A stretch of DNA of 5,870 nt from a virus (lineage: Duplodnaviria > Heunggongvirae > Uroviricota > Caudoviricetes): the IMG/VR virus record IMGVR_UViG_2751185972_000009, positions 1-5,870 of that record, one strand, 5' to 3'. Under the pieces are notes generated by a model. That model saw only the letters and a program-made list of their open reading frames with translations, searched no databases and was not told the origin of the DNA. The translations under genes were made by a program, and so were the position numbers. This document shows positions 1 through 5,870 of this stretch, piece after piece (positions within the stretch are counted from its first letter, which is position 1; each line of letters begins with the position of its first letter).

Positions 1-322
1 TTTTCCAGAGGCGGTCGAACTCCGCCTTCGCAAAATAAGCGGAAGCCTGGCGAAGGATATCGTTACTGCGGCGCAGTTCACGATTTTCACGTTCCAGCTC
101 TTTCAGACGCTGACGTTCAGCGGTGGTGAGCCCGCCATCACCGCCTCCGGTATCCCGCTCATGCTGGCGTACCCAGACACGCAGAGTCTCCGGTGTACAG
201 CCAATCTTTGGGGCAATGGAACAAATTGCCGCCCACTGTGAGTCATATTCGCCCTGACTTTCCAGAACCATACGAATCGCCCTCTGACGGACTTCGGGGG
301 AAAAACGAGTATTTTTAGTCAT
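1..322 (-). CDS. IS3-family transposase OrfA (HTH, leucine-zipper region), truncated by the window edge
   Basis: ATG at 322..320 on the - strand; a plausible RBS (AGAGGTAAACAGG) is 5' of it on that strand. The frame stays open to position 2; its C-terminal ...[20 protein letters not shown] lies where the IS3-family OrfA/OrfB frameshift window normally sits. Confidence 0.8.
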
Positions 323-376
323 CCTGTTTACCTCTTTCTCAGGGAGTTTAGTCTCCAGGATTCCCGGGGCGGTTCA
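1..376 (-). mobile_element. IS3-family insertion sequence (IS629-like), partial; terminus inside window at 376, element continues past the left edge
   Basis: The - strand encodes an OrfA-like product ([42 protein letters not shown]...[35 protein letters not shown]) that I recognise as IS629/IS3-group OrfA. + strand 358..376 is the reverse complement of the remembered IS629 terminus TGAACCGCCCCGGGAATCC, giving a TG...CA-type end at 376. Confidence 0.8.
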
Positions 377-550
377 GTTAGTCATTACCGCATTGTGTGT
401 TTGCAAAAAAATGGGGCTGCGTTAATTAATTTTGTGGATGCCCGAGTGACGGACGGATTTATCTTGCGCGACGGTGAGTTTGTCACTTCATTACAGGCAT
501 TGAAAGAGATCGGAATAAAAGCTGGCTTTTCTGCTTTTTCAGAAGAATAA
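377..550 (+). pseudogene. 5'-truncated ORF remnant (C-terminal 57 codons) abutting the IS terminus
   Basis: The frame starting at 377 is open with no stop from the IS boundary to TAA at 548..550 (...VSHYRIVCLQKNGAALINFVDARVTDGFILRDGEFVTSLQALKEIGIKAGFSAFSEE*). It has no start codon or RBS of its own, consistent with a gene interrupted by the IS insertion. Confidence 0.4.
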
Positions 551-616
551 ACTCATCTACAATCTTGCGCGGGGCTGAACTCCCGCTGAGTAACACCGTG
601 CCACCGGAGAAAACCG

Positions 617-895
617 ATGGCACGCAACGCAAAATATTACAATCATGATAATTCGACCGTTCTTGCCCACACGCACGAGCGGTATTCTCATGCATTTAAG
701 TCAGACTGGTACCAGCATCCCCCATGCACTGAAGAACAGGCCGATTGGCTCATTCAGTGTTACCGCAGGCGCGGATGCGAGGTTAAAAAAGCCCTTAGCC
801 TCGACTACCGTCACTGGATAATCTCCGTCAGGCTCCCTTACTCCGAACGGCCACCGCGTCCGTCCCGCACATTCCAGCAACGTATCTGGAGGTAA
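617..895 (+). CDS. hypothetical small protein (92 aa), first gene of the nin-like operon
   Basis: ATG at 617 preceded by GGAGA (604..608). The stop TAA at 893..895 overlaps the RBS of the next gene, suggesting translational coupling. No family recognised. Confidence 0.4.
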   Translation: MARNAKYYNHDNSTVLAHTHERYSHAFKSDWYQHPPCTEEQADWLIQCYRRRGCEVKKALSLDYRHWIISVRLPYSERPPRPSRTFQQRIWR

Positions 896-896
896 C

Positions 897-1943
897 GTGC
901 GGGTATTACTTCGACCTGTTCTGGTACCGGAACTCGGGCTGGTGATCGTTAAGCCGGGCCGTGAATCCATGCCGGTATTCCACAATACCCGGGTACTGGT
1001 GGAGCCGGAACCGAAAAGCATGCGTAATCTGTCGTCCGGGGTCGTTCCTGCCGTTCGCCAGCCGCTGGCGGAGGATAAATCATTACTGCCATTTTTCAGC
1101 GACGAACGAGTGATTCGTGCTGCTGGTGGCGCTGGCGCATTGTCTGACTGGTTACTGCGCCATGTTAAATCCTGCCAGTGGCCACACGGCGATTATCACC
1201 ACAGTGAAACCGTCATTCACCGTTATGGTACCGGCGCAATGGTGTTGTGCTGGCACTGCGACAACCAGCTGCGCGACCAGACCTCCGAATCACTCGGGCA
1301 ACTTGCTCACCAAAACCTGTCTGCATGGATGATTGACGTCATACTCCATGCAATGAATGGCTCGCAGGAACGGGAATTATCGCTGGCTGAATTATCCTGG
1401 TGGGCGGTCCGCAATCAGGTGGCGGACGCGCTACCGGAAGCGGTATTACGTCGTTCGCTGGGGTTGCGTGCGGAAAAAATCCGCTCAATGTACCGTGAAA
1501 GCGACATCGTACCGGGAGAGCAGACCGCCACCAGCATACTGAAGCAGCGCACAAAAAATCTTGCGCCGCTGTCTCACGCCCACCAGCAAAACCCGCCACA
1601 GGAAGAGACGGTGGTCAGCATTGCCGTTGATCCTGAGTCTCCGGAATCTTTCATGAAACGACCTAAACGTCGCCGCTGGGTTAACGAGAAATACACACGC
1701 TGGGTGAAGACACAGCCGTGTGCGTGTTGTGGTAAGCCAGCCGACGATCCCCATCACCTGATTGGTCATGGTCAGGGCGGAATGGGGACAAAATCTCACG
1801 ATATTTTCACGCTACCGCTGTGTCGGGAGCATCACAACGAGCTTCATGCGGATCCTCTGGCGTTCGAAGAAAAGCATGGTTCTCAGGTTGATTTAATTTT
1901 TCGTTTTCTTGATCACGCCTTTGCAACTGGCGTGCTTGGGTAA
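897..1943 (+). CDS. DUF968/YdfU-like prophage protein with C-terminal Cys/His cluster (HNH/zinc-finger-like)
   Basis: 348-aa ORF with GTG start at 897 and GGAGG at 888..892. The C-terminus (CACCGKPADDPHHLIGHGQGG...LPLCREHHNELH) has CxxC...HH...N...H spacing typical of HNH-type motifs. Size and position (upstream of rusA and Q) match YdfU-like proteins of lambdoid prophages. Family assignment is from memory; the start could instead be ATG 969 or 1020. Confidence 0.7.
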   Translation: MRVLLRPVLVPELGLVIVKPGRESMPVFHNTRVLVEPEPKSMRNLSSGVVPAVRQPLAEDKSLLPFFSDERVIRAAGGAGALSDWLLRHVKSCQWPHGDYHHSETVIHRYGTGAMVLCWHCDNQLRDQTSESLGQLAHQNLSAWMIDVILHAMNGSQERELSLAELSWWAVRNQVADALPEAVLRRSLGLRAEKIRSMYRESDIVPGEQTATSILKQRTKNLAPLSHAHQQNPPQEETVVSIAVDPESPESFMKRPKRRRWVNEKYTRWVKTQPCACCGKPADDPHHLIGHGQGGMGTKSHDIFTLPLCREHHNELHADPLAFEEKHGSQVDLIFRFLDHAFATGVLG

Positions 1944-1955
1944 AAGAGGTGACTG

Positions 1956-2330
1956 ATGCTCATAGATTTGGTTTTACCTTACCCGCCGACGGTGAACACT
2001 TACTGGCGACGCCGTGGCAGCACATATTTTATCTCGGAGGAGGGAAAGCGTTATCGCCGGGCTGTGGCGCTTATTGTTCGCCAGCAGCGGCTGAAATTAA
2101 GCCTGTCCGGAAGGCTGGCGATAAAGGTGATTGCAGAGCCACCGGATAAGCGTCGTCGCGACCTGGACAATATTCTGAAAGCACCACTGGATGCGCTGAC
2201 GCATGCCGGACTTCTCATAGACGACGAGCAGTTTGATGAAATCAATATTGTGCGCGGTCAGCGCGTTCCTGGGGGGCGGCTGGGCGTGAAGATTTACCCC
2301 ATAATGCTTGAAGGGCAGGTCAAAAAATGA
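1956..2330 (+). CDS. rusA: RusA-family Holliday junction resolvase (crossover junction endodeoxyribonuclease)
   Basis: 124 aa with strong SD AAGAGGTG upstream. Motifs LPYPPTVNTYW, PDKRRRDLDN, LIDDEQ and GGRL align with the remembered E. coli RusA (LPWPPSNNRYY, PDRRRRDLDN, WLDDAQ, GGRL), including the catalytic Asp residues. Confidence 0.88.
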   Translation: MLIDLVLPYPPTVNTYWRRRGSTYFISEEGKRYRRAVALIVRQQRLKLSLSGRLAIKVIAEPPDKRRRDLDNILKAPLDALTHAGLLIDDEQFDEINIVRGQRVPGGRLGVKIYPIMLEGQVKK

Positions 2331-3148
2331 AACTGGAAGATTTACCGAAATACTACTCCCCAAAATCCCCCGGCCTGACTGATGCATCGGCCTCAACGTC
2401 GAAAGATGCGCTGAGTATCACTGATGTGATGGCCGCGCAGGGCATGACACAGAATCGGGCTGAGATGGGGTTTTCTGCGTTCCTTGGGAAAATGGGCATT
2501 AGTATGAATGACAGAGAGCGGGCAACAGAATTGCTGACAGAATATGCACTCAGTCGGTGTGATCGCGTGGCGGCGTTAAGAAAACTCCCGGCAGAAATAA
2601 AACCGGCAGTGATGCGTATTATGGCTTCGTATGCGTTTGAAGATTATGCCCGTAGCGCGGCGAGCAAAAAACAGTGCTCCTGCTGTCACGGAAAAAAATT
2701 TATTGAAAGCGAGGTTTTTACAAACAAGATCCAGTATCCGGATGGTAAGCCGCCGGTATGGGCAAAGTGTACGAAAGGTGTGTATCCGTCTTACTGGGAA
2801 GAATGGAAAAAAGTCAGGGAGGTGGTAAAAGTTGCCTGTCCGGAGTGTGGCGGAAAGGGTGAGGTTTCCACCGCCTGTAAGGATTGCCGTGGGCGTGGTG
2901 TCGCCATTCATCGTGAAGAGTCGGTAAAACGTGGTATGCCTGTTATCAGAGACTGCCAGCGTTGTGGTGGTCGTGGCTGTGAAAGACTACCATCAACGGA
3001 GGCATTTAATGCCATATGCAAAGTGACGAGTGCTATCACGCTTGATACGTGGAAAAAATCAGTGAAACGCTTTTACGATACGTTGGTGGTTCGGTTTGAC
3101 ATTGAAGAGGCATGGGCGGAGCGGCAGTTAAAGAGGGTAACGCGATAG
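2327..3148 (+). CDS. Q: Late-gene antiterminator Q (lambda-type), long variant with four CxxCxGxG-like motifs
   Basis: ATGA overlap with the rusA stop. The N-terminus (YYSPKSP...ITDVMAAQGM...GFSAF.GK) and C-terminus (MASYAFEDYARSAA...RFYDTLVV...RVTR) are colinear with lambda Q (FHSPKSP...TDVMAAMGM...ATFAYADYCRSAA...PLYDALVV...AVTR). The central region carries CSCCHGKK, CPECGGKG, CKDCRGRG and CQRCGGRG. Confidence 0.9.
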   Translation: MKLEDLPKYYSPKSPGLTDASASTSKDALSITDVMAAQGMTQNRAEMGFSAFLGKMGISMNDRERATELLTEYALSRCDRVAALRKLPAEIKPAVMRIMASYAFEDYARSAASKKQCSCCHGKKFIESEVFTNKIQYPDGKPPVWAKCTKGVYPSYWEEWKKVREVVKVACPECGGKGEVSTACKDCRGRGVAIHREESVKRGMPVIRDCQRCGGRGCERLPSTEAFNAICKVTSAITLDTWKKSVKRFYDTLVVRFDIEEAWAERQLKRVTR

Positions 3149-3153
3149 TGTTG

Positions 3154-3205
3154 TTGATTTTTCCCGAATCTGTGGTAAATTTGCTCTAACGATGGGCGTT
3201 TTATG
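3154..3205 (+). promoter_or_regulatory. Late promoter pR' with Q-utilisation (qut)/pause region
   Basis: -35 TTGATT (3154..3159), 16-nt spacer, -10 TAAATT (3176..3181), then tgctctaACGATGGG. This is near-identical to the remembered lambda pR' region (GGTAAATTtgactcaACGATGGG), so the predicted TSS is A3189. It lies directly downstream of Q, as in lambdoid phages. Confidence 0.75.
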
Positions 3206-3230
3206 CCTGACGTTAGAAGATTTTTTACAC

Positions 3231-3252
3231 CCCGCCGCCTGGCGGGTTTTTT
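3231..3252 (+). terminator. Intrinsic terminator (tR'-like) about 45-65 nt downstream of the pR' start
   Basis: Stem CCCGCC (3231..3236) pairs with GGCGGG (3241..3246), 4-nt loop, followed by T6 (3247..3252). Confidence 0.65.
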
Positions 3253-3374
3253 ATGACTGAAATCGCGTCAGTATAGTAAACGCGCTGGTGGCGGTGAATA
3301 CCTGTCTTTCAGCTTGCTGGCTTTTTCGACAAGAGTTATTGGTGTGTCACGTTAACCGGAAAAGGGAAAAAGAC

Positions 3375-3572
3375 ATGCTAAAACAGCAGGATATGACAGA
3401 AACCGCCAGAGTGGTGTTTAATGAATTAAGCGTTACCGAACCGGCGACAGTCGGGGAGATAGCGCAGAATACTTACCTTTCACGCGAACGCTGCCAGTTA
3501 ATACTGACCCAGCTGGTTATGGCGGATCTGGCAGACTATCAGTTCGGTTGTTACAGACGCCTTCCGCAGTGA
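3375..3572 (+). CDS. small winged-helix-like DNA-binding protein (65 aa), family unverified (pattern reminiscent of PapI/FaeA-type regulators)
   Basis: ATG 3375 preceded by AGGGA (3363..3367). Product MLKQQDMTETARVVFNELSVTEPATVGEIAQNTYLSRERCQLILTQLVMADLADYQFGCYRRLPQ. The 94-aa version in the ORF track starts at GTG 3288 without an RBS, so the shorter start is preferred. Confidence 0.55.
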   Translation: MLKQQDMTETARVVFNELSVTEPATVGEIAQNTYLSRERCQLILTQLVMADLADYQFGCYRRLPQ

Positions 3573-3583
3573 AGGCTTTTTTA
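3559..3583 (+). terminator. Intrinsic terminator overlapping the stop codon of the small ORF
   Basis: GCCTTC (3559..3564), loop cgcagt, GAAGGC (3571..3576), followed by TTTTTTATTT. Confidence 0.6.
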
Positions 3584-3598
3584 TTTGTGGTAATGGGC

Positions 3599-3627
3599 GC
3601 TGGTGGGTGTTAGGGGCACCCACCAGC
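3599..3627. promoter_or_regulatory. Perfect 11-bp inverted repeat (stem-loop or operator) in the methyltransferase leader
   Basis: GCTGGTGGGTG (3599..3609), 7-nt loop, CACCCACCAGC (3617..3627), all 11 pairs Watson-Crick, no T-tract after it. A second palindrome CTGCTTTgcgcAAAGCAG lies at 3670..3688. Confidence 0.4.
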
Positions 3628-3720
3628 CATCTGCTCATGCGTTGGGTTCACAAGCAAACCTCAGGCCCACTGCTTTGCGCAAAAGCAGAATGAGCCTATC
3701 AGAGACAGGCTTAATGATCC

Positions 3721-4770
3721 ATGCTTAATACTGTAAAAATATCCAGTTGTGAGTTAATCAACGCCGACTGCCTGGAATTTATCCGGTCGTTACCCGAAAA
3801 TTCTGTTGACCTGATAGTCACGGACCCGCCGTACTTTAAAGTGAAGCCTGAGGGCTGGGATAACCAGTGGAAGGGCGACGATGATTACCTGAAGTGGCTG
3901 GACCAGTGTCTGGCGCAGTTCTGGCGGGTGCTGAAACCTGCCGGAAGTCTTTACCTGTTCTGTGGTCATCGCCTGGCATCTGATATCGAAATCATGATGC
4001 GTGAACGCTTCAGTGTGCTGAACCATATTATCTGGGCGAAGCCGTCCGGACGCTGGAACGGATGCAACAAGGAAAGCCTGCGGGCGTATTTCCCCGCCAC
4101 AGAGCGCATTCTGTTCGCGGAACATTATCAGGGGCCGTATCGTCCGAAAGATGCCGGGTATGCGGCGAAGGGCAGTGCACTGAAACAGCATGTGATGGCC
4201 CCGCTGATTTCTTACTTTCGTGATGCGCGCGCGGCCCTGGGGATAACGGCAAAACAGATTGCAGATGCCACAGGAAAGAAAAACATGGTGTCGCACTGGT
4301 TCAGTGCCAGTCAGTGGCAGCTACCGAACGAAAGCGATTATCTGAAATTACAGTCGCTGTTTGCCCGGGTGGCAGAAGAGAAACATCAGCGCGGTGAACT
4401 GGAAAAGCCCCACCACCAGCTGGTGGATACGTATACGTCACTGAACCGGCAGTATGTGGAGCTGCAGAGTGAATATAAGCATCTGCGGCGGTATTTTGGT
4501 GTGACGGCGCAGGTGCCGTACACGGATGTGTGGACACATAAACCGGTGCAGTTCTATCCCGGGAAACATCCGTGCGAAAAACCGGCAGAAATGCTGCAGC
4601 AGATAATCAGCGCAAGCAGTCGTCCGGGTGACCTGGTTGCAGATTTTTTTATGGGCTCAGGTTCAACGGTAAAAGCGGCACTGGCGCTCGGGCGTCGTGC
4701 GATTGGCGTTGAGCTGGAGACCGGACGTTTTGAGCAGACAGTCAGGGAAGTTCAGGATTTAATCGTTTGA
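3721..4770 (+). CDS. DNA methyltransferase, beta-class (motif IV DPPY N-terminal to motif I FxGxG); probably N6-adenine, possibly N4-cytosine; no cognate restriction gene in window
   Basis: 349 aa. DLIVTDPPYF near the N-terminus and DLVADFFMGSGSTVKAA near the C-terminus. This order of motifs defines beta-class amino-MTases. No endonuclease-like ORF is adjacent. Confidence 0.85.
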   Translation: MLNTVKISSCELINADCLEFIRSLPENSVDLIVTDPPYFKVKPEGWDNQWKGDDDYLKWLDQCLAQFWRVLKPAGSLYLFCGHRLASDIEIMMRERFSVLNHIIWAKPSGRWNGCNKESLRAYFPATERILFAEHYQGPYRPKDAGYAAKGSALKQHVMAPLISYFRDARAALGITAKQIADATGKKNMVSHWFSASQWQLPNESDYLKLQSLFARVAEEKHQRGELEKPHHQLVDTYTSLNRQYVELQSEYKHLRRYFGVTAQVPYTDVWTHKPVQFYPGKHPCEKPAEMLQQIISASSRPGDLVADFFMGSGSTVKAALALGRRAIGVELETGRFEQTVREVQDLIV

Positions 4771-4819
4771 AACGGATGAGATTGCAGAATTAATTACGCA
4801 CCATTATTATTCTGCTCCC

Positions 4820-4895
4820 GGCCCTTTAGCTCAGTGGTGAGAGCGAGCGACTCATAATCGCCAGGTCGCTGGTTCAAATCCAGCAAGGGCCACCA
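4820..4895 (+). tRNA. ileZ: tRNA-Ile2 (anticodon CAU, lysidine type; AUA decoding)
   Basis: Manual cloverleaf: acceptor GGCCCTT/AAGGGCC, D-arm GCTC-AGTGGTGA-GAGC, anticodon loop CTCATAA, T-arm GCTGG-TTCAAAT-CCAGC, discriminator A, encoded CCA. Near-identical in design to E. coli ileX. The symbol follows Stx-phage nomenclature recalled from memory. Confidence 0.85.
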
Positions 4896-4904
4896 TATCA
4901 CATA

Positions 4905-4981
4905 CCACCATTAGCTCATCGGGATAGAGCGCCAGCCTTCGAAGCTGGTTGCGCGGGGTTCGAGTTCTCGATGGCGGTCCA
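4905..4981 (+). tRNA. argN: tRNA-Arg (anticodon UCG)
   Basis: Manual cloverleaf: acceptor CCACCAT/ATGGCGG (one A:C mismatch at 3:70), D-arm GCTC-ATCGGGATA-GAGC, anticodon stem CCAGC/GCTGG, loop CTTCGAA, T-arm CGGGG-TTCGAGT-TCTCG (two G:U), encoded CCA. Confidence 0.75.
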
Positions 4982-4995
4982 TTTATCGGTATTCT

Positions 4996-5039
4996 GCGTT
5001 GTTAGCTCAGCCGGACAGAGCAATTGCCTTCTAAGCAGC
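4996..5039 (+). pseudogene. tRNA-Arg (anticodon UCU) 5' fragment: acceptor 5' strand, D-arm and anticodon arm only
   Basis: GCGTTGT-TA-GCTC-AGCCGGACA-GAGC-A-ATTGC-CTTCTAA-GCAGC is a good 5' two-thirds of a tRNA. I could find no T-arm (no 5-bp stem around a 7-nt loop in 5036..5080) and no acceptor 3' strand (ACAACGC-like) anywhere downstream in the window. Confidence 0.5.
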
Positions 5040-5187
5040 TGTGGTTGCACTCCTGTTGTTTCTGGTGGTGATGGTGGACTTCAGCAGCCGGATAATGTCG
5101 GTGCTGTCTGATGGTGTTTTGGTGGCGGGTGTGTGGTTGTTGCTTTCCCGTTGCTGAAAAAGAAAGCATCAGGCGATTAGCAGGGTA

Positions 5188-5386
5188 TCAGTTACCCGTT
5201 GAAATTTTTAAATACCTCACAATTCCACAGCTTGATGATTGTCTGGCTGCCGGAGAATTTGTTAAAAATTACATCGCATGGTGAATCCCCCTCAGCGGCG
5301 GGGCATCTGGCAAAGTGTATGATCCAGAGAACATGCAAATTCAGTAGACAGGCTGAATTTACCGGGAGGCCCCTGGCACCATGCGA
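5188..5386 (+). repeat. Copy 1 of a ~200-bp diverged direct repeat with conserved stem-loop architecture (candidate structured RNA or leader); core 5276..5384
   Basis: Aligns with 5656..5852 at roughly 70% identity. Shared blocks: CAGTT..CCCGT, ATTGTCTGGC, TTTGTTAAAAA, GCATGGTGAATCCCCCT, CTGAATT(T/C)ACCGGGAGGC, CACCATGC. GCATGGTG (5276..5283) is the reverse complement of CACCATGC (5377..5384). Confidence 0.6.
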
Positions 5387-5412
5387 CAGACAGAAATTAG
5401 GCTATACTTCAG

Positions 5413-5435
5413 CCCCTCTCCGGAGGGGCTTTTCT
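5413..5435 (+). terminator. Intrinsic terminator-like hairpin downstream of repeat copy 1
   Basis: CCCCTC (5413..5418), loop tccg, GAGGGG (5423..5428), then CTTTTCT. Confidence 0.5.
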
Positions 5436-5489
5436 GTGCAGGATGTGTCACAGTTTCCTGAATTCTGAGTACTGTCCTGTTACTCAGGG

Positions 5490-5498
5490 TGCTATATT
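5490..5498 (+). promoter_or_regulatory. Candidate extended -10 promoter (TGcTATATT) between the two repeats
   Basis: TGn + TATATT at 5490..5498. A perfect 7-bp inverted repeat CTGAGTA/TACTCAG (5465..5487) overlaps the -35/spacer position. No good -35 hexamer. Confidence 0.3.
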
Positions 5499-5623
5499 TT
5501 CTGACGTGATGAAAGTCTGCCGGAAGGCGGAACGTATCGGAAATGACCCAGTAGAGAAAACGTTGACTCAGATACCGATGCTGAGTTACCGGGAAACCGG
5601 CATCACATGACCGCTATCCTTCC

Positions 5624-5648
5624 AGGCTCGCTCCGGCGGGCCTTTTTA
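5624..5648 (+). terminator. Intrinsic terminator upstream of repeat copy 2
   Basis: AGGCTCGC (5624..5631), loop tccg, GCGGGCCT (5636..5643; 8 bp including one G:U), followed by TTTTT. Confidence 0.55.
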
Positions 5649-5655
5649 CTGCAGA

Positions 5656-5852
5656 AAACAGTTTTCCCGTAAAATGCCACGTTGCTCATAATTCAGGCTG
5701 GCGATTATTGTCTGGCCGGCGGGAAGTTTGTTAAAAAATTTCGCATGGTGAATCCCCCTGTGCGGAGGGGTAATCAGCGAGTAGGTATATGGGATAATCG
5801 CGGATTCAGGTGCTGGTACTGAATTCACCGGGAGGCACCCGGCACCATGCAA
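5656..5852 (+). repeat. Copy 2 of the ~200-bp diverged direct repeat; core 5743..5850
   Basis: Same conserved blocks as copy 1. GCATGGTG at 5743..5750 and CACCATGC at 5843..5850. Hairpins P2 (CCCCT/AGGGG), P4 (GGATTCAG/CTGAATTC) and P5 (CCGGG/CCCGG) are at equivalent positions. Confidence 0.6.
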
Positions 5853-5870
5853 TGGCACATAGCGCCACTC

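Follow-up and report, generated by a model that had tools for sequence, protein, structure and literature searches.

What became of the third tRNA gene in the cluster of a lambdoid prophage, and what is the G/T-rich sequence into which it runs? The window analyzed here (the whole stretch of DNA, 5,870 nt, positions 1 to 5,870 of IMG/VR record IMGVR_UViG_2751185972_000009) carries a tRNA cluster that starts at 4820. Its third member had been described in the initial annotation as a tRNA-Arg(UCU) gene cut after the anticodon arm, at about 5039, and possibly marking a recombination or deletion scar at which cargo genes were exchanged.

The truncated third tRNA gene and its setting

The gene order of the window is that of a Qin-like lambdoid prophage. 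Genes for a DUF968 protein (897-1943), RusA (1956-2330) and a Q-type antiterminator (PF03589; 2327-3148) are followed by a small ORF (3288-3572), an N6/N4 DNA methyltransferase gene (3721-4770) and the tRNA cluster. Over positions 377-5870, the window shares 99.96% identity with a prophage in the chromosome of E. coli DA33133, in whose genome iraM and genes for a SASA-family esterase, a holin and a lysozyme lie beyond the cluster. The scar sits between Q and the lysis cassette, in the stretch that carries cargo ("moron") genes; ileZ-argN-argO and stxAB occupy the same position in Stx phages. Two terminator-like hairpins were observed further upstream: a strong one at 3231-3246 (CCCGCCGCCTGGCGGG then a T run), just 3' of the Q gene, that is likely the tR' of the late promoter region, and a second at 3559-3576, after the small ORF. 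At the left edge, positions 1-376 are not collinear with the DA33133 prophage, unlike the remainder, and a partial match to the ALIL pseudoknot (RF01497, an IS3-family frameshift element) runs from 41 to 1 on the minus strand; together, these features probably represent the end of an inserted IS element.

ARAGORN called two tRNAs in the whole window and no others. The first is an intact gene of ileZ type with anticodon CAT (4820-4895, plus strand; Rfam score 72.5 bits), named tRNA-Ile by PGAP in E. coli DA33133 and ileZ in the 933W annotation. The second is a tRNA-Arg(TCG) gene of argN type (4905-4981, plus strand) with a non-standard acceptor pair; its Rfam score is 44.9 bits, compared to 49.9 bits in L022 (loci used for comparison are given L numbers). 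Alignment to 933W shows an A:C mismatch in its acceptor stem (CCACCAT vs. CCGCCAT), and in its T stem a G:U pair replaces G:C. The function of this argN may be weakened, given the acceptor mismatch, the T-stem G:U pair and the lower score. A region homologous to pT, the putative tRNA promoter, lies upstream at 4782-4810 (plus strand). It is assigned solely from homology to 933W, in that window positions 4781-5037 align with positions 21081-21336 of AF125520 at 94% identity, where pT is annotated at 21082-21110; a simple promoter scan made no call at 4782-4810.

The third gene is a 5' stub of argO, located at 4996-5037 on the plus strand and comprising 42 of the 77 nt of the intact gene to which it was aligned. 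The stub contains the acceptor 5' strand GCGTTGT (4996-5002), the D arm (5005-5021), the anticodon stem 5' strand ATTGC (5023-5027), the anticodon loop CTTCTAA (5028-5034, with anticodon TCT at 5030-5032) and the first three nucleotides of the returning strand, GCA (5035-5037). Its sequence is identical to the initial 42 nt of argO in L005 and L019-L029, where the gene is intact, and differs from 933W by one mismatch. No T arm or acceptor 3' strand was found after the stub, and ARAGORN returned no complete tRNA spanning 4996 to about 5072. The earlier reading of a broken tRNA-Arg(UCU) gene, cut after the anticodon arm, was thus borne out by both the tRNA predictors and the alignment; the break itself was placed 2 nt too far downstream, since identity to argO, including that of 933W, ends at nucleotide 42 and puts the breakpoint at 5037/5038.

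Further searches around the stub were in line with truncation. A permissive Rfam scan of 4985-5200 gave a lone local tRNA match at 5005-5039, limited to the D and anticodon arms (positions 10-42 of the 71-position model), with a score of 14.2 bits (E = 2.4) compared to a gathering score of 29. We also considered an unusual but functional tRNA fold and rejected it, as RNA folding of 4996-5075 was no better than that of shuffled sequences (z = +0.77). The initial annotation had suggested looking for a displaced 3' half of the tRNA. No such half was found in the window at up to three mismatches, and the core 18-mer of the argO 3' half was absent from the junction-bearing loci L002, L004, and L006-L017, searched over approximately 3-6 kb on each side; this 18-mer occurs only in loci with intact argO. 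The truncated argO is non-functional, and the prophage therefore lacks a tRNA-Arg(UCU) gene for AGA/AGG codons, as had been anticipated. At most, the element supplies the ileZ (AUA) and argN tRNAs.

The cluster nevertheless resembles that of Stx phages, for which the order ileZ-argN-argO has reportedly been described. This three-gene order and homology to 933W extend across 4781-5037, with two of the three genes, ileZ and argN, intact and 94-96% identity to the Stx phages 933W and VT2-Sakai. In both cases the cluster is preceded by Q and pR' and followed by cargo and lysis genes. However, in the window, argO ends at nucleotide 42 of 77, the argO terminator and stxAB are missing, and a remnant of tciB comes next instead.

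Identity of the G/T-rich tract

The sequence that follows the stub had been singled out as strongly G/T-rich over 5041-5150, and its composition is indeed the extreme of the window. G+T content over this interval is 75.5%, compared to a mean of 52.1% (sd 6.4%) for all 110-nt windows; a value of at least 75.5% is reached in 10 of the 5761 overlapping 110-nt windows, and the maximum begins at 5038. Over 5040-5159, GC skew is +0.40 and AT skew is -0.58.

The tract is not, however, an unusual sequence, as had been supposed, but protein-coding DNA. An ORF on the plus strand, running from GTG 5041 to a TGA (5041-5157), encodes a predicted product of 38 aa, MVALLLFLVVMVDFSSRIMSVLSDGVLVAGVWLLLSRC, which includes the stretch MVALLLFLVVMVDF... 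This product matches Pfam family PF13064 (DUF3927; 42.6 bits, E = 5.8e-11, curated cut-off 25), covering profile positions 11-39 of 53 only, and PGAP calls it a DUF3927 family protein (WP_000226111.1). Collinearity with tciB of phage JLK-2012 begins at 5038. The G/T richness arises because the protein consists almost entirely of Val, Leu, Phe and Gly (codons GTN, CTG, TTG and GGN): T occupies 23 of the 38 second codon positions, first and third positions are mostly G, and the GRAVY value is 1.79. The G/T-rich tract is thus ordinary hydrophobic coding sequence of a small membrane protein.

Other candidates for the tract did not survive. The permissive Rfam scan gave only chance-level matches to other RNA families, and no Pfam match was obtained for the overlapping plus-strand ORFs at 4971-5111, 5111-5284 and 5199-5468. 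A His/Gln-rich antisense ORF of 55 aa (5002-5169), likewise unmatched in Pfam, is presumably the mirror image of the hydrophobic coding sequence. NCBIfam holds no model for the DUF3927 protein. The tci gene names originate from phage P1. A literature search on TciA, TciB and DUF3927 returned nothing relevant save papers on P1-like plasmids that use these names.

The undeleted arrangement and the origin of the junction

Loci that retain the intervening sequence show how the two flanks are otherwise arranged. Their order is ileZ-argN-argO, a terminator, tciA (TerB family), tciB (DUF3927) and the small RNA gene STnc100, and this arrangement is present in 790 of 5426 complete E. coli genomes. In L020-L023 and L028, intact ileZ, argN and argO lie approximately 170 bp upstream of tciA, with the TerB and DUF3927 genes following; as in the window, a complete N6/N4 methyltransferase gene precedes them in L022. 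Full-length DUF3927 genes, with products of 54-57 aa, stand directly behind the TerB gene and overlap its stop in each of the 12 loci examined: the last TerB position is 3004, and the DUF3927 gene begins at 3001. STnc100 follows tciB in L022 as a single copy.

The window differs from this arrangement by the loss of one internal segment. Positions 1933-2367 of L022 and L023 correspond to window positions 4601-5037 at 95-96% identity, and the sequence from 3022 onward corresponds to the window from 5038 onward, leaving a gap of 654 bp without a match between the two flanks. This gap holds the 3' half of argO, a terminator-like hairpin, the whole of tciA and the first 21 nt of tciB; the hairpin (2417-2434 in L022) is homologous to the terminator annotated after argO in 933W. 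Accordingly, no TerB-family gene was found in the window, and the prophage is without the TerB/DUF3927 pair.

The same module is recognizable in phage JLK-2012, in which tciB and the downstream STnc100 region are collinear with the window from 5038 and the module order of the tciA-tciB region recurs in L018-L029. In comparison with this pair, the window lacks tciA, and its tciB is frameshifted and lacks the first seven annotated codons.

The junction itself, at 5037/5038, is blunt. BLAST boundaries fall at this position against 933W, JLK-2012 and L019-L023 alike. With a slash marking the break, the left parental sequence reads ttctaagca/ATCGG, the right reads gcgtctg/GCTGTGG, and the window reads ttctaagca/GCTGTGG; no microhomology was found with any of the eight parental-type sequences compared. 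The junction is the same base for base in the window and in 14 of 14 other junction-bearing loci that were read, although these loci vary in Q type, presence of the methylase gene and downstream genes. Matches across the junction occur in 325 complete E. coli genomes, and four phage records fully cover a 671-nt query spanning it, at 95% identity. The simplest account is one ancestral deletion that later spread among prophage backgrounds by homologous recombination of the flanks.

We consider it highly probable that a deletion has left a scar here, now fixed and without function, within the cargo region of a lambdoid E. coli prophage resembling Qin. In the proposed sequence of events, an ancestor would have had the order ileZ, argN, argO, intrinsic terminator, tciA, tciB and STnc100 sRNA. 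A single illegitimate, blunt deletion of approximately 654 bp, starting at position 43 of argO and extending to codon 8 of tciB (numbered from its annotated GTG), would then have removed the T arm and acceptor 3' strand of argO, the terminator, all of tciA and the start of tciB. The product would have been a 42-nt tRNA stub fused to the body of tciB, and a 1-nt frameshift would have been gained by the remnant later. The immediate parent of the deleted locus is not among the sampled sequences, as judged from tciB: among complete E. coli genomes, the closest full-length allele is just ~92% identical to the right flank.

These findings retain one part of the earlier proposal and replace the other. 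The site is a deletion scar, as suggested, yet cargo was lost rather than exchanged, since one internal deletion of ~654 bp accounts for the difference from the undeleted arrangement. Nor is the suggested connection with stx supported: undeleted relatives carry tciA-tciB at this position and there is no sign that stx was ever present.

An exchange of cargo through illegitimate recombination between two phages, with a Stx-phage-like donor of the tRNA genes and a JLK-2012-like donor of tciB, nevertheless deserves consideration, and we regard it as unlikely. Lambdoid phages are mosaic, and the tciA-tciB pair of JLK-2012 sits behind a different tRNA cluster, with Asn, Thr and Gly tRNAs upstream. 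The tciB region is also a repeated breakpoint, because phage mEp460_ev081 (L005) has a tciB remnant cut elsewhere, at approximately window position 5083, behind intact argO and an unrelated 500-bp insert. In addition, identity to the sampled undeleted loci is lower for the right flank (89-95%) than for the left (95-96%). Against this stands the presence of both flanks together, in the right order and orientation, in the 790 undeleted genomes; as such loci are common, a single internal deletion suffices. Neither stx nor stx-flanking sequence was found at or after the junction. The one-deletion reading has its own weak point in the bluntness of the junction, as the absence of microhomology removes any clue to mechanism. 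On balance, we infer that one deletion event made the junction.

In its essentials, the scar does not differ from the general class of tRNA pseudogene fragments and deletion scars of mosaic or defective prophages. Common to this class are a partial tRNA without its partner, a blunt illegitimate junction and later mutational decay, as are the persistence of the junction and its spread into other prophages by homologous recombination of the flanks. The scar is ordinary prophage decay. We did not find this junction described in the literature on ileZ, argN and argO or on TciA, TciB and DUF3927. The identical junction can conveniently mark the lineage of a single module among Qin-like prophages that are without tRNA-Arg(UCU) and the TerB/DUF3927 cargo pair; together with annotation hygiene, this is the weight of the finding, with little beyond.

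State of the tciB remnant and consequences of the deletion

We compared the remnant with full-length TciB to assess what is left of the gene. Relative to the 54-aa protein (MTVKMRLAVVALLL...VVVVAFPLLKKKASGD), the first seven annotated codons (MTVKMRL) are gone, including the native start. An in-frame TAA at 5032-5034, inside the former anticodon loop, closes the tciB frame upstream, so that GTG 5041 is the sole start left. No usable Shine-Dalgarno sequence precedes it, the nearest candidate, AAGCAG, ending 2 nt upstream. At the other end, a 1-nt deletion at approximately 5133/5134, near remnant codon 32, shifts the frame (GGTGTGGTGG to GGTGTGTGG); the original C-terminal coding part, VVVAFPLLKKKASGD with its stop, persists out of frame at 5133-5180 (plus strand) and is identical to full-length TciB. 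Thus, the remnant falls short of a full-length DUF3927 protein, which would cover ~53 profile positions, typically measure 54-57 aa and begin at the native start.

Comparison of alleles orders these two changes. An unshifted, junction-bearing allele of 46 aa (P0039) is present in L006-L011, and therefore the junction preceded the frameshift. The frameshifted allele is nonetheless the commonest of those bearing the junction. The alleles that carry the junction differ from one another at three points (Gly/Asp, Val/Gly and the frameshift), each of which changes the protein, whereas seven of the eight differences from JLK-type full-length tciB are synonymous and one is non-synonymous. Although the counts are very small, this substitution pattern is compatible with a gene that was under selection until the deletion and decayed thereafter.

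Whether the truncated ORF instead encodes a functional small membrane protein, with a new start at GTG 5041 and a leader derived from the tRNA stub, was weighed against this background, and we judge this very unlikely. The PGAP call and a score above the Pfam DUF3927 threshold could be taken in its favor, as could a frame that is open for 38 aa (or 46 aa in the unshifted form) in an allele that is abundant and conserved; the 38-aa product is listed in 3970 index blocks. Transcription of the tRNA cluster also plausibly reaches the ORF, because the terminator after argO has been lost. However, there is no Shine-Dalgarno sequence at a usable distance, and the native start, which overlapped the tciA stop, has been lost together with the TerB partner. 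Moreover, the commonest allele is frameshifted and without the conserved C-terminus, and each of the three polymorphisms that postdate the deletion changes the protein. The remnant is more consistent with a decaying pseudogene that annotation pipelines still call as a 38-aa CDS, and it is probably not expressed. Two points follow for annotation: WP_000226111.1, recorded in thousands of assemblies, most likely represents a truncated, frameshifted remnant that should not be counted as an intact DUF3927 member, and the argO stub is an unannotated tRNA pseudogene.

Loss of the terminator may have altered transcription downstream of the scar. Transcripts from the pT-homologous region or from pR' would no longer stop after argO, and would instead read through the stub and the remnant as far as a terminator-like hairpin at 5411-5430. 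This hairpin, the first such site 3' of the junction in a terminator scan, ends STnc100 copy 1 (5246-5439, plus strand; RF02076, 138 bits, E = 2.4e-31). It is conceivable, but we think very improbable indeed, that the deletion was retained because it placed STnc100/PasD-type sRNA genes under the tRNA promoter and pR' read-through. If this were so, the stub and tciB remnant would constitute a new leader or processing site, and the scar would reflect rewired sRNA expression rather than neutral decay.

Three STnc100-like (RF02076) units are arranged in tandem downstream of the scar, at 5246-5439, 5475-5650 and 5715-5870. The second is degenerate and scores 30 bits, under the gathering score of 47; the third is cut by the window end (102 bits) and is complete in L004 (6726-6914; 132.5 bits). 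STnc100 has been related to the prophage PasD sRNAs (bioRxiv 10.64898/2026.05.13.724894), in the report of which the argO/tciB junction is not mentioned.

The position of the break also raised the idea that the stub is one half of a split tRNA, or of an attachment site used by an integrase acting at the anticodon loop of tRNA genes. Some tyrosine integrases use the anticodon-loop region of tRNA genes, and the break lies 3 nt beyond the loop. This reading is hardly credible, however: an element that integrates into a tRNA gene normally restores it and duplicates its 3' segment, whereas here the 5' half is orphaned and no copy of the 3' half exists in the window or within the 3-6 kb on each side of the junction in related loci. 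In addition, the sequence past the break comes from inside a gene and runs collinear with tciB, and neither the window nor L004 contains an integrase gene. A sequencing or assembly artefact can be dismissed, given that the 325 complete genomes matching across the junction were assembled independently and that the 671-nt query is fully covered by four phage records at 95% identity.

Erosion of the tRNA cluster was also observed at argN. In a sub-lineage, the interior of argN has been swapped for unrelated sequence while both acceptor-stem strands are retained, and the decayed gene is no longer called by ARAGORN or Rfam. The loci concerned are L002 (phage vB_EcoS-813R8), L012, L013, L015 and L016, at approximately 3865-3945, and mEp460_ev081, at 2625-2705. 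With argN interiors replaced in this sub-lineage as well, the tRNA clusters of non-Stx lambdoid prophages appear to decay stepwise.
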